In this document: piece by piece, positions 1,604 to 27,700 of the stretch
Layout: each line of letters starts with the position of its first letter
Position numbering within the stretch: position 1 is the stretch's first letter
Source: Edaphobacter aggregans
Lineage (GTDB): Bacteria > Acidobacteriota > Terriglobia > Terriglobales > Acidobacteriaceae
Assembly (NCBI RefSeq): GCF_003945235.1
Contig: NZ_RSDW01000001.1
Span: 4,980,001-5,012,000 of the forward strand
Length of the DNA stretch: 32,000 bases
Direction: 5' to 3'
The notes under the pieces: generated by a model
Database searches by the model: none
The model's input: the letters and a program-made list of their open reading frames with translations, nothing else
Told to the model about the DNA's origin: nothing
Made by a program: the position numbers and the translations under genes

Positions 1604-1610
1604 GGTCATC

Positions 1611-7990: not shown

Positions 7991-8689
7991 TCAGAATTTG
8001 TAGTAGGCTCCGATCACGGGCTCTGCCGTGTGCATAAATCCGATGTTGGGGTTCGTGTTGTTGGGAGGAACAATGCCGGGAGCCTTGTACAGATTGCCGC
8101 GATATTGCAGGCGCAGGCCGGCGTGCCGAGCGAATCCCCAGTCGAATCCAGCACCGTAGACAAACGCCGGCTGGGTGGTATTTGTGGTTCCGCTCTGGCC
8201 GCTCACAGGCTGATTCAGCAAAAGGCCCACGCCGAGAAGACCAAACGGTCTCAGACTGCCAAAGTTTCCCGAGGGGACCCACCCGACAGTGAATTGTTGC
8301 GCATTGGCGGAGACAGCATACGTAGGGTTGGGACAGACGGTGTTGCCACATCCGAATGCGGGTTGGGCGATGAACTCGTCGTACACTTCGTTGGCGCGAC
8401 GGAAGGAGTAGGAGGCTTGCCACCCAAGGAAGGGACTGGAGATACGGCGGAACTCCAGCAGTCCGCCCGCCGAGGCGGCTGGGTTTATCCGATAGAAGTT
8501 AGAGTTGCCCGGGGTAGTGCTGTTGGTGAACGCTCCGTAGATGCTGAGCGCCATATCCGTCTGCCCAATTTCCGGGTGCATTCGCCATGCGTGTTGTGTT
8601 TGCTGCGCCTGGCAGGTCTGGTTCAGAACGAGTGCCACCGGGAAGAGTACGAGCACAAGGAGAATGAATCTCTGCTTTAGGATCCTCAC
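7991..8689 (-). CDS. Outer-membrane beta-barrel protein (OmpW/OMP_b-brl-like)
   Basis: GTG start. Signal peptide MRILKQRFILLVLVLFPVALVLNQTCQA/Q. Alternating aromatic/glycine beta-strand pattern with a C-terminal ...GAYYKF (terminal Phe typical of OMPs). Confidence 0.7.
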   Translation of the reverse strand: MRILKQRFILLVLVLFPVALVLNQTCQAQQTQHAWRMHPEIGQTDMALSIYGAFTNSTTPGNSNFYRINPAASAGGLLEFRRISSPFLGWQASYSFRRANEVYDEFIAQPAFGCGNTVCPNPTYAVSANAQQFTVGWVPSGNFGSLRPFGLLGVGLLLNQPVSGQSGTTNTTQPAFVYGAGFDWGFARHAGLRLQYRGNLYKAPGIVPPNNTNPNIGFMHTAEPVIGAYYKF

Positions 8690-9536: not shown

Positions 9537-10544
9537 ATGTCAGCCGCCACATCGACACCCTGGATTCCACCCAGACCGACTCCCGAGATTCTGCGTGTTG
9601 ATCCGGCGTTGATTCCCGAATACATGGCGTGGTTTGTGAACCGCAGTGCCTACACCCGCCAATCCATCAATCCCAATCCGGATAACGGGCGCTACTACTA
9701 TTACCAGCCAATGGAACGGCTGACGCGGACGCGCCTGGCGCTGAATGACGCCACTGTGCGAAAGCACCTCAGTGGGATCCAGACCATCGGCCTGTACGCC
9801 ATCAATCCGGAGACGCAACGCTCGAAGTGGGTGGCGATCGACGCGGATTATTCGCGGGCGCATCGTGACTTAGCCGCGCTGAAGCTGGAGCTCAAGGAAG
9901 ACGGAGTAACGGCCTCCCTCGAGATGTCCCGGCGTGGAGCTCATCTCTGGATCCTGTGCGAAGAACCCCTGCCGGCGAAAGATTGCCGTATCTATATATA
10001 CAATCTCGCGCTCCGGCTGGGGGTTCCGATCAAAGGGACTCTGAATCAGTTAGACGGAATCGAGATCTTCCCCCGGCAGGACGAATTGCGCGAAGGGGAG
10101 TTCGGTAACGCCATCCGAGCCCCGCTCGGTGTGCATCGGGCAAACATGCATCGCTACTGGTTTGAGGAGGCTGCGCCGGACCTGGTTTCCCAGTTCGCTT
10201 ACCTGCGTAGTCTCAAACGACTCACGGCGGCAGAGTTGACGACGTTCACCGAAGGACTCACCATCCCCGAGGGGTTTCAGTCGCGGTTCAAGGGCGAGCA
10301 ACCAACCGTCTCATTCGATTCCGCAAATGGGTTTCAGATTCTTGAACACGTCCAGGTCAAGAGGAAGGCAAGCAACAACTGGTGGACACGATGTCCTTCC
10401 TGCGCCCAGCAAGGTCACGACCGGAGCGGAGATAACCTCGCCATCTCGGTCGGAGATCCACGTTTCTACAAGTGCTGGGCAGGATGCACGAAAGAAATGA
10501 TTCGGGAGGCTCTCGGTGTCCCGATTCGTCAACGCTCGCTGTAA
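9537..10544 (+). CDS. AEP-superfamily primase-polymerase with C-terminal Cys-rich zinc-binding module
   Basis: AAAGGAG RBS. Catalytic-type motifs WVAIDADY (DxD, nt 9840-9848) and SRRGAHLWIL (nt 9927-9950), plus IEIFPRQ ... IRAPLGVHR. C-terminal CPSC-x4-H ... C-x3-C (nt 10392-10487). Confidence 0.7.
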   Translation: MSAATSTPWIPPRPTPEILRVDPALIPEYMAWFVNRSAYTRQSINPNPDNGRYYYYQPMERLTRTRLALNDATVRKHLSGIQTIGLYAINPETQRSKWVAIDADYSRAHRDLAALKLELKEDGVTASLEMSRRGAHLWILCEEPLPAKDCRIYIYNLALRLGVPIKGTLNQLDGIEIFPRQDELREGEFGNAIRAPLGVHRANMHRYWFEEAAPDLVSQFAYLRSLKRLTAAELTTFTEGLTIPEGFQSRFKGEQPTVSFDSANGFQILEHVQVKRKASNNWWTRCPSCAQQGHDRSGDNLAISVGDPRFYKCWAGCTKEMIREALGVPIRQRSL

Positions 10545-10560
10545 ACACAAGGAGATCACA

Positions 10561-11202
10561 ATGGACACGAAGCTCGCGACCATGGCCCTGCGCGGCCTGA
10601 CCTTGCCAGAACCGACCCGGAAGGAGATACGGAAGACAGGTGTCTACTGCCGCGCCACCATTCAGCTGGTTTATCAGCAACAGTCCCGTCGATGGGCGCT
10701 GCGCGGCGAGGAGGCGGGCGGGGCAGTCGCGAGCATCGGACACTACGTCGGGTTCACTGGCGCAGACGGTCAACCTCTTCCATGGACGCAGCGTATCCAG
10801 AACTTCATGCCCAATGGAGTCCACGCGGTCGTCATCGCCCCGGAGCTGTGGCGGGTGGAGATGTTCCGCTACGAGAACACCTATGATGTGCTGATTACCC
10901 GGCACACTCTTTCCCCTCACTCGAACACACGTCCACATATCGAAAGCAAGATTCTCTTCTTTCGCCGGGCCGGAACTCTTACGACCGAGCTGTGGGGGAA
11001 AGACTCTGCTTTCCGTGGCGGTGCTGTGCCCAGCTTCTTCAAGAAGAATGGGGAAGAAGAACCTCCGCCGGCCACGTTGCTCGATGCGCTTCTGAAAGTA
11101 ACGGAAGCAGTATGCTGCGTCGGGTGCAAGCACTCCCACCTGCTCGAGATGGGTGCGCAGCCCTGTCACTTGAAACTCAGCTTCGCAGAAGTGGGAGTCT
11201 AG
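10561..11202 (+). CDS. Hypothetical protein (213 aa)
   Basis: AAGGAG lies 7 nt upstream of ATG 10561, placed between the primase and ssb. No motif recognised. Confidence 0.55.
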   Translation: MDTKLATMALRGLTLPEPTRKEIRKTGVYCRATIQLVYQQQSRRWALRGEEAGGAVASIGHYVGFTGADGQPLPWTQRIQNFMPNGVHAVVIAPELWRVEMFRYENTYDVLITRHTLSPHSNTRPHIESKILFFRRAGTLTTELWGKDSAFRGGAVPSFFKKNGEEEPPPATLLDALLKVTEAVCCVGCKHSHLLEMGAQPCHLKLSFAEVGV

Positions 11203-11282
11203 CTTCAACGAAATGTGGAATCACGGCGACAACATCGCCGTGCAGTAAGAATGCAGGCAAATCGCACAAGAAAGGAAACAAC

Positions 11283-11774
11283 ATGCCCAAAGGAGTAAAC
11301 AAAGTAACGTTGCTCGGCCACGTAGGCAAGGACCCCGAGATCCGCGCCACACAAGGCGGCACCACCGCCGCAAACTTTTCCCTCGCAACCTCCGAACGCC
11401 ACAGGGAAGGCGAAGAGTGGGTGGATCATACCGAATGGCACAACCTCATAGCCTTCCAACGGACAGCTGAACTCGTCCGCGACTACGTCAAGAAGGGATC
11501 GCAGATCCTCATTGAGGGCAAGCTGCAAACGCAGTCCTGGGACGATAAAGAGTCTGGTCAAAAGAGGTACAAGACCGTGATTCTGATTAGCGATCTGGTA
11601 CTGCTTGGCGGCGGCCAGGAACGAGAGAACGGCAACGGTGGGTCCCAAACAATTTCGAATAGCGCCAACGCAGGGAAGGGTAGCGGTTCTTCTAACAGCC
11701 GAAAGCAAGGCTACAGTCAGCGCCACGAAGATTACGGCGATCTCGGCATCACTGATGCAGACGTGCCCTTTTAA
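11283..11774 (+). CDS. ssb: Single-stranded DNA-binding protein
   Basis: OB-fold N-terminus MPKGVNKVTLLGHVGKDPEIR...TEWHNLIAFQRTAELVRDYVKKGSQILIEGKLQTQSWDDK, a Gly/Ser/Asn-rich linker and an acidic tail ending DADVPF. The ORF-track start at 10992 is an upstream extension. Confidence 0.9.
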   Translation: MPKGVNKVTLLGHVGKDPEIRATQGGTTAANFSLATSERHREGEEWVDHTEWHNLIAFQRTAELVRDYVKKGSQILIEGKLQTQSWDDKESGQKRYKTVILISDLVLLGGGQERENGNGGSQTISNSANAGKGSGSSNSRKQGYSQRHEDYGDLGITDADVPF

Positions 11775-11811
11775 TCCACTCTCGCTCGAGAAGGTGCGTT
11801 ACAGCAATTCA

Positions 11812-11836
11812 GGCGCTCTCAGGAGCGCCATTTTCG
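11812..11836 (+). terminator. Rho-independent terminator after ssb
   Basis: GGCGCTC-TCAG-GAGCGCC followed by ATTTTCGTT. Confidence 0.5.
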
Positions 11837-11903
11837 TTGCCCGAAAAGTATCGGGCGCTCATTAGGAGTCTCCCCTTAATCACTTCAATGAAAGGAATTT
11901 TCA

Positions 11904-12842
11904 ATGCAGAATGAATTCTCGGCCGAGCAACAGAAGCAGTTGCTCGAAAAACTCATCATTCCATTTCATCCCGACGCAATCAGCTGGCGTGTTACTAACA
12001 AGAGCAAAGACGGCAAGCGAGGCTGTGTCATTCCATACGGCGACCAGCGCGCCTACACTGACCGGCTCAACGAAGTCTTCACTCCCGCCGGGTGGACGCG
12101 TGCATATGACGTGACGCCGCTCTCGCCAGTCACCCGCACCAGGAAAAATGTAGCCATTCAGACCGGCAAGGTGATCGTGACCTGCGTCGTAACGATTCAC
12201 GGTCTTGGTTCACACAGCGGAAGCGGTGAGATGTGGGCCGATGACGATAATGCCATGACCCGTGCGGAAGCCCAGGCCTTCAAACGTGCCTGCTGCTGCT
12301 TTGGGCTCGGTCGGTACTTCTACGAATTCGCCGAGATGTGGGTTGATCTGGATGATTATGGCAATCCGCTTCGTATTCCTACTCTTCCCAAGTGGGCGCT
12401 TCCAGCCGGTGTGGTTCCGACAAAGGCCGAGCCGGTGCCTGTCGTCTCCGCGGCGCGGTCGCAGCCGAGCACAGCGAAGACAACGGAGAACGCCAAACTA
12501 GCCGCCTCTGGGTTGGATGCGGGGCTGACGCAACGAATCGAGAGCTTTCGTCAAGTTGTTGGCGACGCTCTCTACTTCGAGGTATTTCGTCGTGGTGGAC
12601 CTGCTCGGAATGCGCGTGAACTGCCCAGCGTGGGTGCCCAAAACTGGGTGGTGAAACAGTTGGAGACCCTCGATCGGGGCATCCAGCGGGTGCGCGTTCT
12701 TGCTGAAGACGTGCACGAGAACGTGTTCTATGGAGTACTCGATGCGCATAGGGTCCAGTCGATCGACAAGATCCCATCCTTCGAAGTCTTGAAGGCAGTT
12801 GTGACTGACCTGCAGAACGCGACACAAGGAGTCGCAGCCTGA
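11904..12842 (+). CDS. Rad52/Rad22-family single-strand annealing protein
   Basis: AAAGGA RBS. N-terminal domain with ISWRVTNKSKDGKRGCVIPYGDQRAYTDRLNEVF...GWT and the diagnostic-looking AEAQAFKRACCCFGLGRYFY block. The C-terminal half is unrelated and variable. Confidence 0.7.
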   Translation: MQNEFSAEQQKQLLEKLIIPFHPDAISWRVTNKSKDGKRGCVIPYGDQRAYTDRLNEVFTPAGWTRAYDVTPLSPVTRTRKNVAIQTGKVIVTCVVTIHGLGSHSGSGEMWADDDNAMTRAEAQAFKRACCCFGLGRYFYEFAEMWVDLDDYGNPLRIPTLPKWALPAGVVPTKAEPVPVVSAARSQPSTAKTTENAKLAASGLDAGLTQRIESFRQVVGDALYFEVFRRGGPARNARELPSVGAQNWVVKQLETLDRGIQRVRVLAEDVHENVFYGVLDAHRVQSIDKIPSFEVLKAVVTDLQNATQGVAA

Positions 12843-14009: not shown

Positions 14010-17000
14010 ATGCCATCTGAGCTACTTGCACTGCGGTTTGCGCCGCGCAAACACTATTGTTTGGTCGCAGCATACTCAATCCTTGGCTTGATTTCCGGAT
14101 GCCACCTATTGGTCGCGAGTTCAGTACCTCGGCCGACTTCCTTAGAGGCGCTCCGAATTGGGCTTTCCGAGGATAAACAAGTCCAGCTCGTCAACGGCTG
14201 GGACTCGGCATACGCTTCAGGCGACCTCGAGCTAGTCACCTCAGCGATAGATATGCTCGAGTCGGCACCGCCAACTTTGCGGCGCAGGATCATTGCCCAA
14301 GCGCACAACTCTACAGCTCTTCCGACACTCTTCAAATCATTGCGTCAACAACAGCAGAAGGACCGTCTGGTCAGCGCGCTTTTTCATTACCCGGATCTGG
14401 TCTCTCCACTTAGCAACGTGCTATCGACTGAACTGTTGTCATTGTCTATGACAAGAGAACAACTGCAATATATTACCGACATTGTCGTCTTGCTGAAGCT
14501 GCAACCGTCGCTGCCAGACGACCTCTATCGGCAGCTGGTTACTAAACAGGATTCGATTCAAGACCCGCAGGTTCGAGAAACAATCGGATCGTTGCTCCTA
14601 GCACACTCTGCGTCGCTCAAGAATCAGGATGCTCAAATCCGAGCGTGGCTGAAGTCAAAGAACTCAGATCAACGTGATCTTGCGACTAAATTGCTGATGC
14701 AAGCGGGCGCAAATCTACCGGATGGGATAGTTGACCAGGCGCTAAACGATCCAAATGGTCCACAAGTGGAAGCGATCAGGTACCTCGGAACTCAACCCAA
14801 GCCTCTATCTCAGAACGATTTGAAGATCCTGATTCCGATACTCGCCAAACCGCAGTCGTCAGAGGCTTGGGAGGCAACGTACAGCACCCTTCAGAAAAAG
14901 AATCCCGATTTCATCAGCACCTTTTCCACACAGTACAAGCAGCAGTTCGATGACTGGGCAAAGCTTAAGCCTTCGGTGTTGATTGGAATTCTTCGAACTC
15001 TTCCTGACGACAAGTCAGGTGAAATCGCCACATGGCCCCTCATCGCAAGCAAGGACGACGATTGCAACATCATGATTGCGAATCTGCTTCTATTGCGCCG
15101 TCGTGCTCTGGCCCACATTGATTTCGGTGAAGGATTGTGGATCGTTCTTCAGGGGCCTCAGACCTGCTCCGGATCGCGCGATGGTGAGGCCTCCATCCTC
15201 TTAGACCAAGTGCTCCATGCGAATCCCGTTGCTTTAGCTGAATTATCGACATTTCTTTCTCTGCGGACTCAGGATAGCAACTGGACAAACTTCACTTCTG
15301 GAATAACCAGCCAAACCGGATGGGAAGCTCTCTACAATGACGGTGGCTCTGGAACTTCCGTCCTGCAACTCGCTCTTTCGCCAGCTCTTACGAAACTACT
15401 GTCGAATGGAGACGAGGCTAAAGCACTGGATCTGCTGCGGCTCGGCGTTCCTTTTTCACCACCGATTTTGGGCAACGAGCCGTTCCTAGCTCGGTACCGA
15501 GGCCACACTGCGTCCTTAAAGGACCCCAGCCTCGAAATTCTAGGCCGGTTAGGCCACCTTCCAAAGGAAATCGCGGATGAGATCCGCGACGTCGCTATGG
15601 ATAGGACTAAGCCAACGACGACCCGTCAGATTGCTATCAGAGCGCTAGCGATGTTGGACGATTCTCAAAGCTATGTCGGAGAGTTCGTAAAGATCGCTCA
15701 GGAACCAATCGACCTACCCTCCGCCGCCGCGCTCAACGCGCTAACGGTTGTCTCTCAGTCTGGGTCACCTACCCCATCAGCTGTCTCGCCTTCTGCATCT
15801 TGGCTCGAGTCAGCCGCTGCTGATCCTCTCACACGAGAGGACGCTTCGCGGCTTCTCGAAGTATTGGCACTCAAGAACAGCGCATTTGGTCCGCTGTTGC
15901 TTCGCTCAATGAGCGACATCACAAGCTATCGCTGTTTGGACCTGGCGGTATTGGATCAACTTACACCCAAGCTTTGGCTCACAATTCTGGACGTCGGGCT
16001 CTCGAACGCCGACAAAATCGACAGGGCTCGCACTTGCGTCATGGTGTTGACCGCGAATCAGCCAAAAGCCACTCTAATAAGCTCCGCATTGACAGGGCCA
16101 AGATCACAGAAGGCACCGGAGAGATCATCCGATCGTCTCGCCTTGCTTTCAGGGTTGGACGGGGTGTGGGGTGAGACTCAAGGCCTCAATCGAGTAAGGG
16201 CGGCCGTTGCAAATCAAGTCGATTTGCTGTCTTCATCCCTCCCTTATGGAGTTGAAAGTCAGAAGCAACTTCGGAGCTGGTCAGATCGGTTGAAGAACGA
16301 GTTTCCCGAAGCATCACAGCGTATTAAGGGAGAGGCAACCAAACAAACCGCTGTTCTGGTAATCCTTGGCATCCCGCTCGCTGTAGCTGTCCATTTTCTC
16401 CTGTGGCTCTTACTTCTCTTCGTGTATCCGCGTTCACCAGCAATCCAGTCGGTGATCTTTTGGAATCCTATTGTCCGGAAGCTCTTGGCGCTTGGCTATA
16501 TGGACTTGATCCTGCTTTCAATGCCCTTTGTACGCAGGATCCTTTTTGGCCCGCTCAGCGAGCAAATGTTGGGGGAAGTGCTCCAACCCAACGAGGGCGA
16601 AATGGATCGCGTTGCCTATTTCCCTAAGGGACGAGTGCGCCGGCTCGTTACTGCCCAAGGCCTAGCCGAGAGCACGCCCACTGAAGAGGCCATTCTGACC
16701 GCGCTCGATCCGCTTCGACGACGGACATTGCTACTGGGAATGTCCGGGCTAGGAAAGTCGAGTTACTTGAGGTTTTCCCTTTATCAAAAGGCGCTACGCA
16801 AGGAGTTCTCCGTCTATCTGCCAGCCGCCCGTTGCCTTGGTGGTGTAGAAAGTGCAATCGCCAACCGCGTTGCGCTATTCTCTCAAGACCGTGATCTTTT
16901 ACACTCTCTCATTCATGCGGGTCGCCTTGAGATCTACATTGACGGTTACAACGAAGTAGATACAGCAACACAGGATGAAATCACGAGCTTCGCGGCGATG

Positions 17001-18401
17001 TTCAGCAGTGGACGTATTCTCGTGACCAGTCAAATACCCATTCGAGGCCTCACGCGGATAGAGACCCTTGAACTGCAGCCCCTACACGAGGATGAGATCG
17101 AGGAGTTTTTGATCGGTCGAGAGCCGGCTCTACCCGAAAACTCGCCTATTCGAGGTGACACCTTTCGGTTCGTGGCCAAAATGTATCTCGAAAATCTTTG
17201 GCGCAACTCTGCTACACATAGTGAGACAAAAGCTATTGCTCAAGTTCTGTCGAATCCGATGGATCTCACCACCGCTGCGATGATTTTGGGGAACGCCAAA
17301 GAACCCAGCCTGTTTGCTCTTCAGGAGCAGCAATTCGAAATGCTGCAGGAGCGATTCGTCCGGCACTACCAGCAATCTTATCGTACAGACCAGTTCTCCG
17401 AGGACGTCTTTACAAGAAGAGTGAGCGACGATGACGATCTTAGCAAATCAACCTACGACAAAGAGGTTGCCTCACTTATCGAATTCAAAATGGCTTTGGT
17501 CAGATCGGTAGAAGTCCCGGGTAAGCCGCCAAGGCAGGAAATACTGTTCCGCCACGATCGAATTCGAGACTATTTCACGCATTTCGCGTTCCTCAGTGAA
17601 AAGCAGGATCAACGTCGGTTCGATTATGCCAACGATAGTCGTTTCGCAGGTGTGTACGAATATCTTGCCAAGGTTCTTGACCTCGGATCCGCTGAGCGTT
17701 TGCGAGAACGGCTGCTGATGAGCGCCGTCGAGAGTCAAGATCACAGACTGAGCGATAGTTTCATCCGTCAACTCGCCTGGCGCCAGCAGTTCGCGTCCGG
17801 TGATCCATCTTGGCTGATTGACTATGACCTGCCGAGCGCACGAGATGCCGATCTTAAGTTCGACGCGTTGCAGTCTGAGAGAGCGAGCCTCGAAAGTCAA
17901 ATGCTACGCCTCAAAGAGACGATGGCCGGGTCTAGAACACTGACTCGCATGATCTCAACAGACGACGGCTCGGCGCTTCTGAGAGTTAGCGTGCAGTGTT
18001 TCGTAGCACTCGGAGGTTCAGTTACGACGTCTTCCACCGGGACTTCTTCTGAGAACCAACTAATCAATTCCCCGAGTGGTGTTCCATTCACATTGGCAAC
18101 GGTCTGTAATCGTGGGTCGATCAATTCCTTTCAACTGGAGCTGCTCATCCAAAGGCTGAAGGATGCATCTCGGCCGGTGTTACTTATTACCAATTCGAAC
18201 ACCTCGATGAAGCCAGATGAGAGACCAAAAGATATCACAGATGATGTGCTCCATAAATTGCTCGGACAAGGCATACTCTGCACCTCGGCGAGAGAGATCT
18301 ACGAAGCTTATGTGGCGCACGTTGCTGGCTCAACAGATGTGATATGGAATGATCTGGAGGCGCTATGGAAAGATATGCAGGACAGCCTCGTAAAGCGTTA
18401 G
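14010..18401 (+). CDS. Giant 1463-aa STAND NTPase: lipobox-like signal, HEAT-like solenoid, TM segment(s), NACHT P-loop domain, coiled coil, unknown C-terminal domain
   Basis: Uninterrupted 4.4-kb ORF. I-S-G-C at residues 28-31 after a basic/hydrophobic leader. HEAT-like strings (DPQVRETIGSLL, GPQVEAIRYLG, TTRQIAIRALAMLDD). 26-aa hydrophobic segment at 781-806 (nt 16350-16427). Walker A GMSGLGKS (nt 16737-16760), Walker B IYIDGYNEV (Asp at 16941-16943), RILVTSQ, LQPLHEDEIEEFL. Confidence 0.85.
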   Translation: MPSELLALRFAPRKHYCLVAAYSILGLISGCHLLVASSVPRPTSLEALRIGLSEDKQVQLVNGWDSAYASGDLELVTSAIDMLESAPPTLRRRIIAQAHNSTALPTLFKSLRQQQQKDRLVSALFHYPDLVSPLSNVLSTELLSLSMTREQLQYITDIVVLLKLQPSLPDDLYRQLVTKQDSIQDPQVRETIGSLLLAHSASLKNQDAQIRAWLKSKNSDQRDLATKLLMQAGANLPDGIVDQALNDPNGPQVEAIRYLGTQPKPLSQNDLKILIPILAKPQSSEAWEATYSTLQKKNPDFISTFSTQYKQQFDDWAKLKPSVLIGILRTLPDDKSGEIATWPLIASKDDDCNIMIANLLLLRRRALAHIDFGEGLWIVLQGPQTCSGSRDGEASILLDQVLHANPVALAELSTFLSLRTQDSNWTNFTSGITSQTGWEALYNDGGSGTSVLQLALSPALTKLLSNGDEAKALDLLRLGVPFSPPILGNEPFLARYRGHTASLKDPSLEILGRLGHLPKEIADEIRDVAMDRTKPTTTRQIAIRALAMLDDSQSYVGEFVKIAQEPIDLPSAAALNALTVVSQSGSPTPSAVSPSASWLESAAADPLTREDASRLLEVLALKNSAFGPLLLRSMSDITSYRCLDLAVLDQLTPKLWLTILDVGLSNADKIDRARTCVMVLTANQPKATLISSALTGPRSQKAPERSSDRLALLSGLDGVWGETQGLNRVRAAVANQVDLLSSSLPYGVESQKQLRSWSDRLKNEFPEASQRIKGEATKQTAVLVILGIPLAVAVHFLLWLLLLFVYPRSPAIQSVIFWNPIVRKLLALGYMDLILLSMPFVRRILFGPLSEQMLGEVLQPNEGEMDRVAYFPKGRVRRLVTAQGLAESTPTEEAILTALDPLRRRTLLLGMSGLGKSSYLRFSLYQKALRKEFSVYLPAARCLGGVESAIANRVALFSQDRDLLHSLIHAGRLEIYIDGYNEVDTATQDEITSFAAMFSSGRILVTSQIPIRGLTRIETLELQPLHEDEIEEFLIGREPALPENSPIRGDTFRFVAKMYLENLWRNSATHSETKAIAQVLSNPMDLTTAAMILGNAKEPSLFALQEQQFEMLQERFVRHYQQSYRTDQFSEDVFTRRVSDDDDLSKSTYDKEVASLIEFKMALVRSVEVPGKPPRQEILFRHDRIRDYFTHFAFLSEKQDQRRFDYANDSRFAGVYEYLAKVLDLGSAERLRERLLMSAVESQDHRLSDSFIRQLAWRQQFASGDPSWLIDYDLPSARDADLKFDALQSERASLESQMLRLKETMAGSRTLTRMISTDDGSALLRVSVQCFVALGGSVTTSSTGTSSENQLINSPSGVPFTLATVCNRGSINSFQLELLIQRLKDASRPVLLITNSNTSMKPDERPKDITDDVLHKLLGQGILCTSAREIYEAYVAHVAGSTDVIWNDLEALWKDMQDSLVKR

Positions 18402-18952
18402 CACGCTTACTGCGAAGGGCATCGTTCGCATTGGGCCTGGCGGTCATACTACTCGCCGGCGCGCACGGTTCAAGGGCTGAGGTGTTTGAGTCTCGCTATT
18501 TGCGTTTTAGCTTGCCTGAAGGGTGGAAGTGCGATCTTGAAGACCATGTGTTTGTATGTGAGCCACCGCACACCAAGGGGCAGAAGGTTAACAAAATCAT
18601 CATGTTTGCGGTCAAGTATCCGGGAGCCGATGACAACTTGTCCTCGTACATGGAGTATCTCAAAACGAATAGATCGATAACGAACGGTTCATCTCTGATA
18701 GATGGACCAAAAATCGACACAGATCTCGGGGCTGTATCGTGGGTGGAGGCTACTCATTATGAATCCGAATTGAAAGGGTTCAATACAACCTATCTGGCTA
18801 CAGTCTCCAACGGACTCGCACTACTTGTTACTTTTAGTGGCGGTAAGGCAGGGTTTTCAGAGTTTCAGCAAATGATGAAGCCCTGTATCAGAAGCCTCGA
18901 AATCAAGAAGAACTGGCGTGATGCCGAGCGCCAGCCTGGCAAGAAAAAATAG
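18365..18952 (+). CDS. Secreted/periplasmic 195-aa protein, translationally coupled to the NACHT gene
   Basis: GGAGG (18356-18360) lies 4 nt before the ATG. 37-nt overlap with the upstream CDS. Signal peptide RRASFALGLAVILLAGAHGSRA/E. Mixed beta-rich mature part beginning FESRYLRFSLPEGW. Confidence 0.65.
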   Translation: MERYAGQPRKALARLLRRASFALGLAVILLAGAHGSRAEVFESRYLRFSLPEGWKCDLEDHVFVCEPPHTKGQKVNKIIMFAVKYPGADDNLSSYMEYLKTNRSITNGSSLIDGPKIDTDLGAVSWVEATHYESELKGFNTTYLATVSNGLALLVTFSGGKAGFSEFQQMMKPCIRSLEIKKNWRDAERQPGKKK

Positions 18953-19091: not shown

Positions 19092-20843
19092 TCAGCTGCC
19101 GGGATAACTTACCTTGCCGGCCAGCTGTTTAAATTCAATTGAGTCACTCCAACTGATGGAGCCTGTCGGCGATATCTCGCCAACACCATTGAAGTCCGTG
19201 ACTCTTCCCACAAGATCGGCCAGGCTTGGCCGGTCTGCGTCGTAACGGGACGCGCGGTAGAGGAAAGTGATCCGCGCAGCCAGTGGGCCAACCTCACTCC
19301 AGGTGTTATCCGGATCCTGCCGGCTATTGGCATACGTCCCAGGTTTGGCCGCAAGCAGGACCACATTGCTCGAATGCAGATAAGGCTGGGTGTCAGCCAC
19401 ATGCTCCTGCAGGGTGCCCAGCCGGGACAGAGTGTCGCCAGCAGCGCCTTCGGGACCGACATATACGAAGATATTCTGGCCCTTGTCGGAAACGATTCCA
19501 AGTTCTGACCTCATCCGCTCAAACTCATCCATACGAACACAACCGTCGACGATGAGCGCAAATGGAGTATGGGTCTGCGCGAGTTGCGCATAGAGCTCGC
19601 GAAGAGGCAGAAACCCCGGTGGGAGGGTCTCGAGATTCGCATCGATGGCGTTGGCGAGACGCGCGAGATCACCGATTTTGCTGTCGACCGCGTGCTCGAT
19701 CAATTCCGGCGATCGTGTCGGCAGATTCGCTGGTATTTGTGAGGCCGACCCGAGAATGAGTGCGATGTCGCCACTTGGCCAGGTCATCGTATGCCCGACG
19801 TAGTACGCAATCAGAAACCGACTGTTGTTCCGCTGGACAGTCGTGGCCACCGTCGCGAGAAAGTCTCGGATCCGTTGCTCGGTGAGCGGTCGATCTTCGG
19901 TGCTAATCATGTCTAACCGGGCCGCGGGAGAGTACCGGGCGAGTGTGTTGCCGAATAGCTTTGCGCTGTCAGCATTCCAATCTTGCCGCAGCATGGCTAG
20001 ATTGGGGTAATGACCCGAAGCGATTGTCACCAGAGTCCAAGCAGCGGGTTGTGTCGAGGTTGCCGGAATGACGCTCGACGTGTTTTTTGGCTGGGGACGT
20101 ATCGGGGAGAGGACGACATCGCTTGGCTCCACTCCCAAATGGGTCAGGATAAAGTGGGCGCTACTGGCTTCGAAAGCGAAGATTACCGGGTCAAGTATTT
20201 CAACCCTCACTTCGCCTTGCTGTGCGCGGCTTGCGTCAATGCGGAAGTGCTCCGAATTGATGTTGGACTTAGCAGCCTTGCTCCAGAGCGAACCCTGATC
20301 GGCCCCCTTTCGTTTCAGTAGATAGGTGAGGCGGCCTTGGTAGGCTCTGGTGATAACAACAGGATCGGTACCTTTGTTGGCCGCGCTTTGGGCCTCCTGA
20401 GAGGCCAACAGCTTGCGCTTGAGTGCCGCTACATCCATCTCCAGTATCTTGCCGTCCGTCACCTGAAGGTCCAGCCCAATCTCTTGTTTGCTTGAGGCGG
20501 CCTCGCTGAGCCACGGCACTCCCAGCGAACCCAGAGCGCTGCCAGCTATCTGGTCGTCTGTGGTGAGTTGGAAGCTGCTGCCTGTGTGTAGATCGGTATC
20601 GTTCGCATCGGCAGGATTGAGGATGAACAGTTTTTCCGTAACCAGAATTGTTCCGGGATAGCGGGATGCCGCAGGCGGCAGATTAATGAAAAAGTCGGCA
20701 GCGCGACCCTTGGGGAGGTTCAGTGCGGCAGCAAGGCTCGATCTGAGATCAGCATTTCGCGTAAAAAGGCCAGGAAGAAAGAACACGAGAGCTGTAAGTA
20801 CGACCATGGCAATCAACGTCAGACCGACTTGCTTGCGCGTCAT
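19092..20843 (-). CDS. Membrane-anchored protein: N-terminal TM, unknown beta-rich ~210-aa module, Pro/Ser/Thr linker, caspase-like (clan CD) cysteine peptidase domain
   Basis: ATG at 20843 with AAAGGTGA upstream; the ORF track extends to GTG 20915. TM segment VGLTLIAMVVLTALVFFLPGLF. His block FLIAYYVGH (His codon at 19791-19793), Cys block FALIVDGC (Cys codon at 19539-19541), then a p10-like VVLLAAKPGTYANS...GPLAARITFLY. Confidence 0.6.
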   Translation of the reverse strand: MTRKQVGLTLIAMVVLTALVFFLPGLFTRNADLRSSLAAALNLPKGRAADFFINLPPAASRYPGTILVTEKLFILNPADANDTDLHTGSSFQLTTDDQIAGSALGSLGVPWLSEAASSKQEIGLDLQVTDGKILEMDVAALKRKLLASQEAQSAANKGTDPVVITRAYQGRLTYLLKRKGADQGSLWSKAAKSNINSEHFRIDASRAQQGEVRVEILDPVIFAFEASSAHFILTHLGVEPSDVVLSPIRPQPKNTSSVIPATSTQPAAWTLVTIASGHYPNLAMLRQDWNADSAKLFGNTLARYSPAARLDMISTEDRPLTEQRIRDFLATVATTVQRNNSRFLIAYYVGHTMTWPSGDIALILGSASQIPANLPTRSPELIEHAVDSKIGDLARLANAIDANLETLPPGFLPLRELYAQLAQTHTPFALIVDGCVRMDEFERMRSELGIVSDKGQNIFVYVGPEGAAGDTLSRLGTLQEHVADTQPYLHSSNVVLLAAKPGTYANSRQDPDNTWSEVGPLAARITFLYRASRYDADRPSLADLVGRVTDFNGVGEISPTGSISWSDSIEFKQLAGKVSYPGS

Positions 20844-20923
20844 CCGTTTCACCTTTCTATTTCCATGCCACGATGCCCGCAATTCTAAGTGCTGCCGCCG
20901 TAGCGGGCAACTCACTCCCGTCG

Positions 20924-22699
20924 TTATCGCCGGCTCCTTCTTATCCCGTCAGCCACGACAAGATCCGGGTTTTCCTTGGGGAAGAGGATCTTCACCATGT
21001 TCTTGTAGATCGAGATCCATTCGGCGTGGAGCCAGTCGTTCTCTCGCCAACACAATCCGCTGAGATCGATTGCTTGTAGTGGGGCCGTAAGCGAAGGATT
21101 TGAGTCGAGCCACTTCTCGAGAATCTCCGGCAAAGTCGATTTTGCAAAGAACCCCGTGACCATCTCGAGGCTTTCGATCCCTGAACAGAAGATCGGTCGG
21201 ATCTGGCGTGGTGGGAATGCGTTCCGATCCAGATGCTCATCAAGAAAAGTGTTTAAGAAAGCGGGCATACCGATCGTGCCGCCAATGGAGTCAAGCGTGA
21301 CGATATAAAGATAGACGTGTTTAATTTCCGTGAGATCTATTTCCGGCGTCACCTTCGAGGCATTGACCCCAAACAGCGTCTGCGTGGCCTCAACGAGTTG
21401 CAGTACGCCCTTCCTGCCAGATGACTCCTTGTCCTCAACAAGCTTCTTTTCAATTTCCGCCGTAAGAGCCAAATGGTCGCCGCTGTACTTGGTATCTGCC
21501 CGAAACATGCTGGACTTGTACTCCATCAGCACGATTGAATCGCCGGATACGACGATGCCGTCGCATATCTGCATATCCGGCCGACCCGATGGCTTGGGGT
21601 CAGGGATGAAGCGAGCCTGAGTCCCAGCACATGCGCACCGCATGAGTTCATTTACGTACTTCTCAAATACTGCGCCCCAGAACTTCCGCAGCTTCAGCCC
21701 GTGGTGAGCACTGGCATGCCAGTAAGGGCCGGTCAGAACCTTCTCAAGAAAAAAGAGGTTGTCTATCATCAGATACCCACACCATGCCGTCGTTTGGTGC
21801 AGGTTATAAAACTGTTGCACGAGCGGAAATCTGCGGAAGATAGTGAAATCGTTCGGGCCGTTATCCTTCACCCGGAGTTCGCGCGCCATCCTGGTTGGAT
21901 TGGCGGCAAGCAAATCCAAAAACTTCGACACCTTCGTCGGCTCGATCGCAGTCGGCGAAAAGTTAGCTTCTTTGAGTGGCAATGTTCCAGGTTCCCTATA
22001 GAGGGCTTTCGATAGTTCTTCTCCAAATCGAGCGTGAGTACCGAAGATCATCGATTGATACTCTTCGAGAGTCAGTCCGGTTTCCTTCTGGTACTCCCCA
22101 GCCACATCAACAAAATCTGGGTCCTGGCGAAGTTCATCGGTGAAGCGAGTCAGCATGAGGTGACTGCGCGTGATGAGTTGGGTGATTTCCGGAGATGCGT
22201 CTTCGCCAACGGCGATCATCTCCGCAATGATCTTTGAGAATTCCTCGCGCTCTGCGACCGGCCGACCTGCATTCGCAAGATCGGTGAGCAGGCCGTAGTC
22301 GAACTGGTCGTTTGCCTTTAGCAGGATGGAGCCGAAGCGCTCAGCATGGAGACGTGCATCTGTTCCGCCTGAACAGTGAAGAATCGCGATCTTGGCAATC
22401 AGGAGTACTTGTCTGCGGTGGAATAGCACTCTTCTCGGATTCGAGCTCCAGTATCCGGCGATGAATCGAATATGAAGGTCGGCCTCGAAGTAAAGAGAGA
22501 GAAGGCTTTTATAGACGTCCGCAGGCTGAAAATCCACCTTATTCCAAAGCTGCAAACCGGTCACGATTACTGCGCAAACCCAGAGCACCGATTGCTGGGT
22601 GAATGGGCGAATCTCCGCGATGAGCTCGTCCATCGTGCTCTTCCTGCCATAGACATTCTCGAATGTCTCGTACACCGCGAGTTGGGAAGCGGTCCTCAT
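20924..22699 (-). CDS. 591-aa protein with helical N-terminal half and a PD-(D/E)xK nuclease-like core
   Basis: GGGGGAT RBS. GAVFEKYVNELM ... ICDGIVVSGDSIVLMEYKS (D380 or D387, E393, K395; nt 21515-21562) resembles restriction-endonuclease-fold signatures. 80-nt gap to the downstream caspase-like gene on the same strand. Confidence 0.5.
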   Translation of the reverse strand: MRTASQLAVYETFENVYGRKSTMDELIAEIRPFTQQSVLWVCAVIVTGLQLWNKVDFQPADVYKSLLSLYFEADLHIRFIAGYWSSNPRRVLFHRRQVLLIAKIAILHCSGGTDARLHAERFGSILLKANDQFDYGLLTDLANAGRPVAEREEFSKIIAEMIAVGEDASPEITQLITRSHLMLTRFTDELRQDPDFVDVAGEYQKETGLTLEEYQSMIFGTHARFGEELSKALYREPGTLPLKEANFSPTAIEPTKVSKFLDLLAANPTRMARELRVKDNGPNDFTIFRRFPLVQQFYNLHQTTAWCGYLMIDNLFFLEKVLTGPYWHASAHHGLKLRKFWGAVFEKYVNELMRCACAGTQARFIPDPKPSGRPDMQICDGIVVSGDSIVLMEYKSSMFRADTKYSGDHLALTAEIEKKLVEDKESSGRKGVLQLVEATQTLFGVNASKVTPEIDLTEIKHVYLYIVTLDSIGGTIGMPAFLNTFLDEHLDRNAFPPRQIRPIFCSGIESLEMVTGFFAKSTLPEILEKWLDSNPSLTAPLQAIDLSGLCWRENDWLHAEWISIYKNMVKILFPKENPDLVVADGIRRSRR

Positions 22700-22778: not shown

Positions 22779-22902
22779 CGACCACATTTCTGGCAAATGG
22801 CCGGGGTTGATTTCGCGGAAGGGAGGCATAAAGTGGGCAGCTAATGCAATTTTATGGCTCAAGTCGCACCCCTTTATAAACAACGTGAAAGGAACCCTCA
22901 GC

Positions 22903-23961
22903 ATGCGCAATGCGGGCAGGCTTAAGCTCGGTTATTATCCGCTGCCTACAGAAGAAGGCCACTGGCTGCGGCGGCTTCTCCAAAGCACGGAACCCTTCAG
23001 TGCAATCGACCCTTGTGTCGGAATGGGGGCAGCTCTGCATCTCATTACCGCTGATCTTCCATGTCGACGTTATGGCGTCGAACTCGATGCGGAGCGGGCG
23101 CTCGCCGCTTCCCGGTCGGGGATCGAGACGGTACAGGGAGACCTCTTCGACGCACATGCCAAGGTAGAGTCGTTCTCTCTCTTGTACCTTAATCCCCCAT
23201 ATGACTCAGAAATAGGGACGCTCAACAACCAGCGCATGGAGCTGCTCTTTCTCGAGCACACCTACCGTTGGCTTGTGCACAGCGGGGTCCTCTTGTTTGT
23301 AGTGCCGGAGAAGCGGCTTTCGGTGTGCATTCCGCTGTTGGCAGCGAACTTCACCGGTTTTCGTTTGTTCCGGCTCAACGATCCCGAATCCATCCGCTTC
23401 GAACAGGTCGTGCTTGCGGCGGTACGAAAGCCGATGCGGGGGGATGCGATGGAAGCGAATCGCTCTGTGCTGCAACGACTGATCTTCAATACGGAGCCTC
23501 TCAATCTGGAAGACGAGCATGAACCGTACTACTTACCCGCAACGCCACCTGCGGCCATTGCTTACCGTGGACTTCCCTTCGACGCGATCGAAGACCTGAT
23601 TCCCAACTCGCCCGCATGGAAGCAGGTTGCGCCTTTTCTGTTGCCGAAAGAAGAGATGGCTTCCGGCCGGCCGATCACACCCCTGCACGCGGGCCACGTC
23701 GGCCTGCTCTGCACGGCAGGTTTGCTCAACGGAGTCTTCGGTGAGGGAGCGGATCGTCACATCGCACGGTGGCGGTCGGTGAAGCACACCACCATCAGCA
23801 AGGAGAAGGAAGACAACGTAGAGATCATCCGCAAGCGCGAGCGTTTCTCGAACGAACTTTCCCTCGTTTACCAGGACGGACGAACCCTCGTCCTCACCGA
23901 GTCTGCAAAGACAGTGGAGGCAGAAGATGCAGAATGCACACCTACGGCTGGGGCAGCTTGA
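22903..23961 (+). CDS. SAM-dependent DNA methyltransferase, NPPY type (probably N6-adenine)
   Basis: GAAAGGA RBS. Motif I IDPCVGMG (nt 23005-23028) precedes motif IV LNPPY (NPPY at nt 23191-23202). No adjacent restriction endonuclease recognised. Confidence 0.8.
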   Translation: MRNAGRLKLGYYPLPTEEGHWLRRLLQSTEPFSAIDPCVGMGAALHLITADLPCRRYGVELDAERALAASRSGIETVQGDLFDAHAKVESFSLLYLNPPYDSEIGTLNNQRMELLFLEHTYRWLVHSGVLLFVVPEKRLSVCIPLLAANFTGFRLFRLNDPESIRFEQVVLAAVRKPMRGDAMEANRSVLQRLIFNTEPLNLEDEHEPYYLPATPPAAIAYRGLPFDAIEDLIPNSPAWKQVAPFLLPKEEMASGRPITPLHAGHVGLLCTAGLLNGVFGEGADRHIARWRSVKHTTISKEKEDNVEIIRKRERFSNELSLVYQDGRTLVLTESAKTVEAEDAECTPTAGAA

Positions 23962-24800: not shown

Positions 24801-26444
24801 ATGGCGGACGAAATCGGAGCATTTACGTGGACATCCTTTTATCAGGAGCTTGCGGACAAACTGGTACTGTACCGCGATCGCCAGGAAGAACTCATTTCTA
24901 TTCTGGAAACGCTGCGAGGCAAGAAATTAACGATTACTCCCTTCGAGGACAAAGATGAGACCGGTCGCCGTTTCGCGCTGACCATTATCGACCCCTTTAC
25001 ATTCTTCGGGACATTCAACCGTCGGATTGAAACCAACACACGGGTTGCGATTCTGCGAGAACTAAAGTCTATTTTCGACCTGTCCGCTGACGCGCCCTCC
25101 GACTTCACCGGAATCCCGGTATTGGACCCGCGCAATTCCTGGTTCTTGGTATGGAGTCACCTCCGAAAAGCTACAGATGTGCCGCAATTATGGGATGTGT
25201 TCGATAAGGCGCTTCTTCCAAACGCAATGCAAAATATTGAATTTGCCCGCGGATTCGATGCAGCAGTTCAAATCCGAAACGTCGATATAAACCTAACAAT
25301 GGGTTTGTTTTGGATTCGGCCATTTACCTTTCTCAGTTTCGACAGCAATAACCGCAAATTCTTAAACATCAAGCTTCCGAGGGAAGGTTTGTCCTTCGAG
25401 TTCTACCGTACGACGTTGGAAAGAATCAAAGCAGAACGGGACGAGGACTTTCCTCACATCTCCCGCTCAGCATGGCTCGCCGGCAATGAGCCGGTAGTTG
25501 GCACCACCCACGGGACACCCAGCGTTGCGAAGCCGAAAACAGCTGTACCCATTCAAGGCGCCTCCCAATACTCGGTGGCGGCCATGTTGGCGGAGGGCGT
25601 CTTCTTGGATGCACGTAGGATCGAAGAAGCGCTCCACCGTTGGAAGACTAAAAAAAACCTGATCCTGCAGGGGCCACCCGGTGTGGGGAAGACATTTGTG
25701 GCCGCGAAATTGGCCTACGCGCTTCTTGAAGAGCGGAAATCGTCCCGAGTGGAGGTGGTCCAATTCCATCCCTCATTCGCCTATGAAGATTTTGTTCGTG
25801 GATATCGTCCAACAGTTGAGGCGGGCAAATTCGAACTGATGGACGGTCCTCTACGTAAGATTTGCAAGCGAGCTGATAACGATCCTGAACAAAAGTATGT
25901 GCTGCTAATCGATGAGATCAACCGTGCCAATCTCTCGCAGGTCTTCGGTGAGCTATTGATGCTGCTGGAGAGTGACAAGCGTGGTGCGAACTACTCTGTT
26001 ACTCCCCTCTATCCTGCCCAAGAGGAAGAAAAGTTTCATGTCCCCGAGAATCTCTTTTTCATCGGAACAATGAACATCGCGGACCGTTCCCTCGCGCTGG
26101 TCGACTTTGCTCTGCGACGCCGGTTTGCCTTTCTCACCCTTGAGCCGAACTACGGATTGCCCTTTCGTACGTGGCTTGAGGAGCGCGGCATGAACAGTTT
26201 GCTCACAGAGAAGATCGTGCAGCGGATGACCGCACTCAACAGCCAGATCAGCAATGACTCTTTTCTTGGATCCGCGTACCAGGTCGGCCATAGTTTCTTT
26301 TGTCCTCCAGGTGATGATTTCTCAGAACTTGGCGACCAGTGGTACAGAGAAGTAATCGAGACGGAGATCGAGCCACTCTTACAGGAGTACTGGTTTGACA
26401 AGCGCGAGAACGCCAAATCGGCAACAGATGCTCTATTAGCGTGA
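24801..26444 (+). CDS. mcrB: McrB-family AAA+ GTPase subunit of a modification-dependent restriction system
   Basis: Walker A GPPGVGKT (nt 25671-25694), Walker B LLIDEINRANLSQVFGELLMLLE (from nt 25902), McrB signature FIGTMNIADRS (MNIADRS at nt 26070-26090) and ALRRRFAF. About 280-aa N-terminal domain of a different type. Confidence 0.9.
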   Translation: MADEIGAFTWTSFYQELADKLVLYRDRQEELISILETLRGKKLTITPFEDKDETGRRFALTIIDPFTFFGTFNRRIETNTRVAILRELKSIFDLSADAPSDFTGIPVLDPRNSWFLVWSHLRKATDVPQLWDVFDKALLPNAMQNIEFARGFDAAVQIRNVDINLTMGLFWIRPFTFLSFDSNNRKFLNIKLPREGLSFEFYRTTLERIKAERDEDFPHISRSAWLAGNEPVVGTTHGTPSVAKPKTAVPIQGASQYSVAAMLAEGVFLDARRIEEALHRWKTKKNLILQGPPGVGKTFVAAKLAYALLEERKSSRVEVVQFHPSFAYEDFVRGYRPTVEAGKFELMDGPLRKICKRADNDPEQKYVLLIDEINRANLSQVFGELLMLLESDKRGANYSVTPLYPAQEEEKFHVPENLFFIGTMNIADRSLALVDFALRRRFAFLTLEPNYGLPFRTWLEERGMNSLLTEKIVQRMTALNSQISNDSFLGSAYQVGHSFFCPPGDDFSELGDQWYREVIETEIEPLLQEYWFDKRENAKSATDALLA

Positions 26445-27532: not shown

Positions 27533-27700
27533 TTCAATGTTTCAACTGTCAAGATGATCATCTCTAGAGGTCTTGGATCATTTACGAAGTCCTGGCATCA
27601 TCAGATGAGTATCCTCTCCAACGCTTAGAAAGCTCCCCTATCGAGGCCATCCCAACGCTGGCCTTTTCTTTTGCTGATTCGCGCTTTCAGGAGCCCCATC

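Follow-up and report, generated by a model that had tools for sequence, protein, structure and literature searches.

A predicted transmembrane NACHT-like STAND protein and its coupled exported partner in a conjugative element of Edaphobacter aggregans

The characterized NLR-like sensors of bacteria, Avs and bacterial NACHT (bNACHT) proteins, recognize phage proteins inside the cytoplasm once the genome has entered. The STAND class of NTPases is said to have been described by Leipe et al. in 2004, and the NACHT subclade was reportedly recognized by Koonin and Aravind in 2000. According to Kibby et al. (bioRxiv 10.1101/2022.07.19.500537), bNACHT sensors "tend to be located C-terminally," and one class with "TM regions" may recognize intramembrane or periplasmic signals. 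The present study concerns a gene of Edaphobacter aggregans that encodes a large protein of 1463 amino acids (aa), together with a small partner gene that overlaps its end. Both genes lie in a window of 32,000 nucleotides (nt), the whole stretch of DNA analyzed (contig NZ_RSDW01000001.1, positions 4,980,001 to 5,012,000 of the forward strand). The large protein consists of a predicted exported N-terminal domain (N-domain), one transmembrane (TM) helix, a cytoplasmic NACHT-like NOD and a C-terminal domain (C-domain). TM-containing bacterial NACHT proteins and periplasmic sensing are foreseen in general terms in published surveys, so the concept is partly anticipated; no description of the exported-repeat/TM/NACHT-like layout or of the partner, nor any experiment on the family, was found in the searchable literature.

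The two genes are explained here, with modest confidence, as an accessory module of a mobile element, in which a receptor-like transmembrane NLR would sense an envelope-level cue together with a periplasmic partner. Computation established the integrity of the gene, its family membership, the domain folds, the coupling of the partner and the topology indicators. The coordinates of the features are given in Table 1.

Architecture of the large protein and its partner

The large gene is judged to be real, intact and under selection, without frameshifts, because full-length homologues exist at two levels of identity. Four metagenomic homologues of 1458 to 1463 aa share 56 to 59% identity with the protein across its full length, and 10 reference genomes, including those of Proteobacteria, encode homologues of 1432 to 1479 aa with about 40% identity. 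The product is identical to the E. aggregans hypothetical protein EDE15_4191 (WP_125486944.1). The 1463-aa open reading frame (ORF) reported in an earlier, sequence-only reading of the window was thus confirmed, and a split of this ORF by frameshifts, which that reading had kept in view, is excluded by the full-length homologues. A GGAG motif is located 11 nt upstream of the ATG. Conservation counts for the clade refer to 15 members from four phyla. Scans of the large protein and its partner with Pfam, PADLOC and NCBIfam gave no match at E ≤ 0.1, and searches of PDB sequences with a profile of the whole family found nothing. No homologue was found in a phage sequence collection. A promoter and terminator scan returned counts equal to those of shuffled sequence and was hence uninformative.

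The topology of the large protein is predicted to span the envelope, with an exported N-domain, a single TM helix (TM1) and a cytoplasmic NOD and C-domain. This topology is well supported, not proven, because the export signals, the positive-inside charges, the cysteines of the N-domain and the exported partner agree. These four independent computed lines support the central proposal of the sequence-only reading, which had placed the NTPase and a small C-terminal domain in the cytoplasm behind one TM helix. Sec export and an extracytoplasmic location of the N-domain are indicated by heuristic evidence, namely the signals, the charge bias and four invariant Cys residues.

An export signal was present in all 15 clade members. 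The basic n-region and hydrophobic core first noticed in E. aggregans recur in every homologue of the large protein, the hydrophobic part being about 19 residues long with a Kyte-Doolittle (KD) value of about 2.0. The proposed lipobox fared less well. I28-S29-G30-C31 (nt 14091-14102) does fit the lipobox pattern, but Cys31 is missing from 4/4 closest homologues, and a lipobox-like Cys was found in only 3 of the 15 clade members (E. aggregans, Mesorhizobium with LVGC and Methylobacterium with LTGC), the rest having AxA-type sites. An alternative signal peptidase I (SPI)-type site, A36-S37-S38/V, is present in the E. aggregans protein. The conserved feature appears to be the export signal, whereas lipoprotein status is not conserved. 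Among 126 full-length representatives of the wider family, at least 64 have signal-peptide-like N termini by a crude criterion, many with canonical VNA/KE-type sites. Many of the remaining representatives start at a conserved post-cleavage motif, and longer RefSeq versions exist, which suggests that start codons have been miscalled in many representatives without a visible signal. Family members that seemed short and devoid of an N-domain were rejected as a separate type, as they were contig-end fragments or start-codon miscalls with longer RefSeq versions. The start call gave 810 aa compared with 1454 aa in RefSeq for Bradyrhizobium sp. STM 3843 (P0013/P0196), and 984 aa compared with 1027 aa for Nostoc sp. 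MS1 (P0028/P0197).

TM1 was already recognized as an uncharged segment in the sequence-only reading, and its hydropathy and conservation bear this out. The weaker hydrophobic stretch at residues 823 to 841, here called H2, also stood: it is weakly hydrophobic and holds D832, which is invariant in the clade. The family-conserved residues of TM1 are H795, W799, L803 and Y806-P807, and those of the juxtamembrane loop and H2 are Q813, FWNP (816 to 819), R823, G829-Y830 and R842; the mean column identity of the loop and H2 in the clade is 0.71. In 151 members, conservation reached 90% for H795, 98% for W799, 100% for N819, 99% for R823, 98% for Y830 and 96% for R842, and Y806-P807, Q813 and P848-F849 were likewise conserved. 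The TM and juxtamembrane module (residues 781 to 848; 16350-16553) is the most conserved part of the family and is conserved more strongly than much of the NTPase, which suggests that it does more than anchor the protein. No further TM-like segment was found in the N-domain of 120 of the 126 representatives.

The orientation was deduced from the charges of the same 151 members, anchored on the invariant WNP motif. The 18-residue loop after TM1 contained on average 3.21 K+R and 0.04 D+E, compared with 2.09 K+R and 1.81 D+E in the 15 residues before TM1 and 2.32 K+R and 1.85 D+E in the 15 residues after H2. Because the loop is positive with almost no acidic residues, it is placed in the cytoplasm and TM1 is predicted to run N-out/C-in. 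The approximate insertion free energy (dG) of H2 is about +8. Its hydrophobic moment (muH) is 0.21 at a mean hydrophobicity of 0.50, and the values for TM1 are 0.07 and 0.75. H2 is read here as an interfacial or cytoplasmic helix and not as a second span, since a second span would put the P-loop NTPase outside the cell.

The N-domain of the E. aggregans type was matched only in relatives of about 1400 to 1500 aa, and Pfam gave no match for it. In the 15-sequence alignment, hydrophobic periodicity showed alpha-type spacing in 73% of windows, compared with 53% of known-helix windows and 22% of known-strand windows in the calibration, indicating that the domain is probably mainly helical. HEAT repeats were not detectable in it. 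Alignment by hhalign with the HEAT region of a Nostoc relative gave a probability of 0.4% (E = 0.15), with the best local overlay at two HEAT_PBS-like units (about 208 to 262). A HEAT-unit hidden Markov model (HMM), built from 110 repeats of family relatives, found 0 units above 2 bits in the E. aggregans protein, compared with 5 to 12 units (180 to 335 bits) in positive controls; in 7 of the 15 clade members it detected no more than one weak unit. The recurring HEAT/PBS-lyase-like strings that had been noticed by eye are not above chance by these three measures.

About 18 positions of the N-domain are invariant across the 15 sequences, and four of them are the cysteines C352, C386, C642 and C676. 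Exactly four Cys residues occur in the N-domain of 11 of the 15 members. In the cytoplasmic half, C942 is the only invariant Cys, and the number of Cys residues there ranges from 1 to 6. The N-domain cysteines fit structural disulfides formed in an oxidizing compartment, the disulfides themselves being putative. An internal duplication of the N-domain, prompted by the two C-x33-C pairs, was rejected, since an hhalign comparison of its halves reached E = 0.017 and did not place the Cys pairs opposite each other.

A partner homologue is located directly downstream of the large gene in 15/15 clade loci (E = 1e-29 to 1e-119), and in many of them the two genes overlap by 4 nt (ATGA). The partner, of about 190 aa in the clade, was absent in 4/4 relatives that lack the C-domain. 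All partner homologues have a hydrophobic leader, an AxA-type site and an invariant C-x8-C. They are small standalone proteins without a Pfam domain and form an orphan family. The sequence-only reading had overlooked this coupled gene.

Residues 845 to 1463 were modeled by AlphaFold2 (AF2) with a 50-sequence alignment, at a predicted local distance difference test (pLDDT) score of 88.4. In a Foldseek comparison with the PDB, ranks 1 to 12 were occupied by NLRC4, NOD2, NLRP3 and NLRP5 (E = 1e-9 to 1e-5; 281 to 504 columns), and the NOD model aligned with NLRC4 and NOD2 over 445 to 504 columns. ORC, RFC, other AAA+ proteins and Avs4 ranked below the NLRs. K916, D978 and H1182 are invariant, as are the NOD motifs S1007-Q-I-P..R1012 (within ILVTSQIP), P1024-L, LSNPMDLT (1080 to 1087) and Q1107-Q. 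In the model, a beta-hairpin (1162 to 1180) precedes the invariant F-R-H1182-D motif. From its fold, the NOD should work like the NOD of an NLR.

Both features expected of a STAND protein were found, namely a P-loop with Walker A and the Walker B Asp and a helical/winged-helix extension. As for NACHT, the closest structural neighbors are NLRs, but neither Pfam PF05729 nor D[GAS]hDE, the NACHT signature at Walker B according to Kibby et al. (bioRxiv 10.1101/2022.07.19.500537), was matched. Because the signature and the Pfam threshold were both missed, the NOD is called here a divergent NACHT-like STAND module and is not filed as a NACHT member. Of the NACHT core that the sequence-only reading had placed at about residues 900 to 1100, the NLR fold and the motifs stood; the family name did not, given the missing Pfam match and a DGxNE Walker B.

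The heptad-like segment seen earlier at about residues 1280 to 1310 is part of a single long helix. The C-domain behind it was modeled alone by AF2 (pLDDT, 89.3), with the topology alpha-beta-beta-beta-alpha-beta-alpha-beta-alpha by DSSP, which contains the alpha-beta-beta-beta-alpha-beta core of the restriction endonuclease (REase) fold. Foldseek matched it to EcoT38I (E = 2.9e-4), HindIII, EcoO109I, SfsA, VRR-NUC, Bax1, EndoMS, LlaBIII and the noncatalytic N-domain of RPB5. More than 10 PD-(D/E)xK-fold proteins were among the top matches, with TM-scores of 0.26 to 0.45, which is modest support. A search of PDB sequences with a C-domain profile gave no match. In 34 diverse sequences, P1402 and R1405 are the sole invariant residues, and N1395, P1355, G1335 and W1446 are nearly so. 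An active nuclease effector was rejected, as catalytic residues are not conserved in these sequences. The best description of the C-domain is a REase-fold domain that is catalytically inactive and may have a role in binding or assembly. The sequence-only reading had proposed a candidate effector of about 150 aa at this end; an alpha/beta domain of that size does exist, but without catalytic residues.

Table 1. Positions of the features of the large gene and its partner in the window. A slash marks a putative cleavage site.
Feature	Residues	Position	Strand	Description
Large gene	1-1463	14010..18401	+	Complete ORF, 1463 aa; transmembrane NACHT-like STAND protein
N-terminal export signal or signal anchor	1-38	14010..14123	+	Basic R9, R13, K14, then hydrophobic 16-36
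Predicted extracytoplasmic N-domain	39-780	14124..16349	+	Probably mainly alpha-helical; clade-specific
First invariant Cys pair	C352-x33-C386	15063..15167	+	Candidate disulfide; Cys in 15/15
Second invariant Cys pair	C642-x33-C676	15933..16037	+	Candidate disulfide; Cys in 15/15
TM helix 1 (TM1)	781-806	16350..16427	+	Predicted N-out/C-in; KD 2.4-2.95, approximate dG < 0
Juxtamembrane loop and helix H2	807-845	16428..16544	+	Predicted cytoplasmic; weakly hydrophobic H2
NACHT-like NOD	846-1262	16545..17795	+	NBD, helical domain, winged helix, HD2; from AF2 and Foldseek
Walker A	G910xSGLGK916SS	16737-16763	+	Invariant in 15 clade members and 43 family representatives
Walker B	I977-DGYNEV	16929-16958	+	D978 invariant in 15 clade members and 43 representatives
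Winged-helix motif	F1180-RHDRIRDYF	17547-17576	+	F-R-H1182-D invariant
Long helix	1275-1315	17832..17954	+	Candidate coiled coil or stalk; DSSP, both AF2 models
C-terminal alpha/beta domain	1316-1463	17955..18398	+	Modeled REase-like (PD-(D/E)xK) fold
Partner gene	1-195	18365..18952	+	195 aa; overlaps large gene by 37 nt; translationally coupled
Partner Sec signal peptide	1-38	18365-18478	+	SRA/EVF; hydrophobic leader and AxA-type site
Partner invariant Cys motif	C56-x8-C65	18530-18559	+	Conserved in all partners

The wider family and the genomic setting

The layout is not a one-off. Searching with a profile of the cytoplasmic half yielded 45 relatives, and the exhaustive search, by HMMER, gave 760 clusters (50% identity), of which 407 had E ≤ 1e-30. 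The layout common to this family runs from a signal peptide through an exported repeat domain and the conserved TM module to a NACHT-like NOD. The core shared by the 760 clusters corresponds to residues 788 to 1259 or so, a stretch that begins at the TM helix and closes with the helical domains behind the winged helix. The region upstream of the core varies among members from about 150 to 1280 aa. Most members stop about 350 aa past Walker A and are thus devoid of the long helix and the C-domain.

Pfam domains were counted in a random sample of 43 family representatives. HEAT was significant in the N-terminal region of 33 representatives (77%), AAA_22 was matched in 29, and weak, subthreshold NACHT matches occurred in 16 (best E = 3.3e-4). 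A Nostoc member (P0025) shows the layout with a signal peptide (LPWVNA/EKK), HEAT at about 50 to 430, the conserved TM module and a P-loop domain. Members are annotated as "sister chromatid cohesion protein PDS5," "PBS lyase," "HEAT repeat protein" or "hypothetical," names that reflect neither the NTPase nor the topology in the membrane.

The window belongs to a conjugative element (integrative and conjugative element, ICE). Among its genes are those for a VirD4-like coupling protein, AEP primase, SSB and Rad52. The VirD4/TraG-like coupling protein is encoded at 1443-3362. A cluster of DNA-processing genes, of the kind that conjugative elements typically carry, spans 9537-12842 (+) and encodes the AEP primase (matched by Pfam AEP-TOTE at E = 1.4e-25), the SSB protein (E = 4.9e-31) and an annealing protein of the Rad52/22 family (E = 6.3e-13). 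The genes for a 703-aa protein with DUF4232 (5797-7908, -), an outer-membrane beta-barrel protein (OMP_b-brl; 7991-8689, -) and a Siphovirus Gp157-like protein (30180-30854, +) are mixed envelope and phage-like cargo.

Downstream of the pair and convergent with it are two adjacent ORFs of 607 aa (19092-20915, -) and 591 aa (20924-22699, -), which had no match in Pfam, PADLOC or PDB sequences and may form another uncharacterized two-gene system. A McrBC-type pair is located at 24801-27532 (+), where the gene for a 547-aa AAA_5 (McrB-like) protein overlaps that for a 363-aa McrBC protein (PF10117; E = 1.9e-30) by 4 nt. A DUF6094 methyltransferase (22807-23961, +; PADLOC mad2-like, E = 2.3e-12) and an SNF2/DpdE-like helicase (27671-29989, +) could be orphan modification or antirestriction cargo.

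Rhizobial plasmids carry the pair as well; two of these are predicted to be conjugative, and a conjugative plasmid of R. leguminosarum is among the carriers. Elsewhere the pair lies in islands, whose flanks are wholly different and hold AbiEii, Avs3, PARIS, type II restriction-modification, PDC-S01, Tle1-like and RHS/SpvB genes, as well as transposases, a relaxase and TraN. A conserved third gene was sought and rejected, the most recurrent flanking Pfam family occurring in 3 of 113 ORFs. The two genes seem to form a self-contained module that moves horizontally and resides in apparently conflict-rich regions.

Two further loci were inspected. Beside a homologue of the pair on metagenome contig Ga0599179_0000172 (L002, 15009-24377), genes were found for an ECF sigma factor with a 405-aa neighbor, helix-turn-helix (HTH) proteins, a Z1 domain protein, an HATPase_c_3 protein and a DNA methylase, with a patatin upstream; this neighborhood looks like a defense-island setting. 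On Nostoc contig JAIVFS010000058.1 (L006, 5641-5919), a HEAT-type relative without a downstream partner is preceded by two small ORFs, one of 92 aa and one of 128 aa with DUF559, and an opposite-strand M48 peptidase and LemA come after it.

Possible envelope sensing and the alternatives

If the pair is a receptor module, the large protein would be a single-pass protein of the inner membrane, whose export signal places a mainly helical domain of about 740 residues in the periplasm, where two disulfides probably stabilize it. TM1, the conserved basic juxtamembrane loop and the amphipathic helix would link this domain to the cytoplasmic NACHT-like STAND NTPase. The small partner would be secreted to the periplasm and may bind the N-domain as a coreceptor or regulator. 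The exported domain and the partner would then detect a cue at the level of the envelope, and the conserved TM and juxtamembrane module would pass the signal to the cytoplasmic side. An ADP-locked NOD would be released, bind NTP and oligomerize, and the oligomers would cluster the membrane modules and the C-terminal domains. The output would most likely be a conflict or abortive-type response, and the candidates for it are the clustering of the conserved membrane module or that of the C-terminal domain. The exported domain is taken as the sensor because it is the variable domain (with HEAT in most sampled representatives), a pattern expected of sensors.

Several observations weigh against this explanation. 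Pfam NACHT (PF05729; gathering threshold, 26.7 bits) was matched neither by the full-length protein (E ≤ 0.1) nor by residues 850 to 1135 (E ≤ 10), and this isolated NTPase segment matched only AAA_16 (E = 0.019) and nSTAND1 (E = 0.04). Walker B, D978-G-Y-N981-E982, departs from D[GAS]hDE, and its Asn is invariant in the family. In some relatives, H2 is hydrophobic enough for a second TM helix. The cytoplasmic C-domain strictly co-occurs with the periplasmic partner, a link for which the model does not account. Most family members have no C-terminal domain, and in the 34-sequence alignment no conserved acidic or Lys catalytic residue was found in beta2/beta3 of that domain. Neither protein matched a known defense-system model, and the link to defense comes from the gene neighborhood only.

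A broader claim is made more tentatively and is a possibility for the essentially unannotated family of about 760 clusters as a whole: its members may be single-pass NLR-like receptors, in which exported repeats survey the periplasm or envelope and switch on the cytoplasmic NACHT-like oligomerization module. The membrane module itself would be the effector once oligomers have formed, and in the E. aggregans clade a secreted coreceptor would add specificity. Cues such as phage adsorption or genome injection, attack by type IV or type VI secretion systems (T4SS/T6SS) or envelope damage could be detected in this way. If true, surface-receptor immunity would have a prokaryotic counterpart in which it is fused directly to an NLR.

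The molecule may instead work from the inside out, which is considered unlikely. The C-terminal helix and the inactive REase-fold domain would then sense a cytoplasmic cue (foreign DNA or a phage protein), and the membrane and exported part together with the partner would be the effector, disrupting the membrane or envelope after NOD oligomerization. The order would be the familiar one, as published bacterial NACHT proteins usually have an N-terminal effector and a C-terminal sensor, and a nucleic-acid-enzyme fold without catalytic residues suits a binding role. However, most of the clusters end after HD2 and hence would lack the sensor. The strong conservation of the TM and juxtamembrane module and the strict co-occurrence of C-domain and partner are in keeping with an effector at the membrane, but the exported part varies in length and often carries HEAT, which is typical of sensors and not of effectors.

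A nonimmune, envelope-linked NTPase switch that serves the mobile element or the physiology of the envelope, for instance in entry or surface exclusion, in regulating conjugative transfer or as an envelope scaffold or signaling device, is regarded as quite improbable. The pair does sit amid the ICE genes, adjoins repABC and parB on the R. leguminosarum conjugative plasmid, has the partner as its only recurrent neighbor and matches nothing in PADLOC. Many of its loci, however, are chromosomal islands without transfer genes and with entirely different flanks, the cyanobacterial relatives are standalone chromosomal genes, and the NLR-type NODs studied so far are overwhelmingly conflict or immunity switches.

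A helical hairpin, considered in the sequence-only reading for residues 781 to 841, in which the N-terminal stretch is no export signal, TM1 and H2 only tether the protein to the membrane and the N-domain and NOD are both cytoplasmic, is very improbable, since the usual cytoplasmic location of HEAT repeats and an H2 that forms a 17-residue hydrophobic stretch with Arg on both flanks, more hydrophobic in the cyanobacterial relatives, are opposed by canonical Sec signal peptides with AxA sites kept in distant relatives, a TM1-H2 loop of +3.2 net charge with virtually no acidic residues, the unfavorable dG, invariant D832 and greater amphipathicity of H2, the four invariant N-domain Cys residues and the exported partner.

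If an exported, variable repeat domain is indeed wired by one TM helix to an NLR switch, the logic of NLRs would extend to extracytoplasmic sensing. Detection would then be possible before or at invasion, or of attack by a neighboring cell, and the pair would offer a tractable bacterial model of transmembrane NOD activation. If the function is instead one of the ICE or plasmid, such as exclusion, the pair would add a new class to the systems of that kind. The large family is misannotated in databases, and the present analysis defines testable constructs, residues and an obligatory partner.

Comparison with known systems

The coupling of a cytoplasmic P-loop domain to a large periplasmic domain has reportedly been seen in TssM/IcmF. 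TssM differs from the E. aggregans protein in having three TM helices, another NTPase class and other neighbors. LuxP-LuxQ, TorT-TorS and CpxP-CpxA resemble the pair by analogy only, in combining a sensor domain and a soluble partner in the periplasm with a cytoplasmic output module. There is no homology, and the output module in E. aggregans is a STAND/NLR-type NOD and not a histidine kinase.

The Avs/AVAST proteins share the sensor-NOD-effector logic of STAND proteins, the presence of REase-fold nuclease effectors in some members and the location in defense islands. The structural match of Avs4 (PDB 8dgf) to the E. aggregans NOD is weak (E = 3e-4), and no Avs model of PADLOC was matched. Avs proteins reside in the cytoplasm, where they sense the terminase or portal proteins of phages, and their REase domains are N-terminal and catalytically intact.

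The animal NLRs NLRC4, NOD2 and NLRP3 (PDB 4kxf, 5irm and 7alv) are the best structural matches to residues 845 to 1262, with 380 to 500 columns aligned across NBD, HD1, WHD and HD2. The conserved winged-helix His (FRHD) is shared and is consistent with an ADP-locked resting state. Sequence identity to the E. aggregans NOD is only 10 to 14%. In contrast to the E. aggregans protein, these NLRs are soluble and cytosolic, with C-terminal leucine-rich repeat (LRR) sensors and N-terminal CARD/PYD, and have no TM helix, exported domain or partner.

Like the bNACHT proteins of Kibby et al. (bioRxiv 10.1101/2022.07.19.500537), the E. aggregans protein has a central STAND-class NOD with NACHT-like motifs and fold. 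Both are multidomain proteins with superstructure-forming repeats (HEAT in the relatives of the E. aggregans protein) and both have a patchy distribution, enriched in cyanobacteria and myxobacteria. No bacterial HEAT-before-NACHT architecture is listed in Table S1 of that study, which distinguishes 25 clades; the table does not encode TM segments. Unlike the bNACHT proteins, the E. aggregans protein has a DGxNE Walker B with no Pfam NACHT or PADLOC match, carries its repeat- or sensor-like domain N-terminally behind an export signal and is accompanied by an obligatory exported partner gene.

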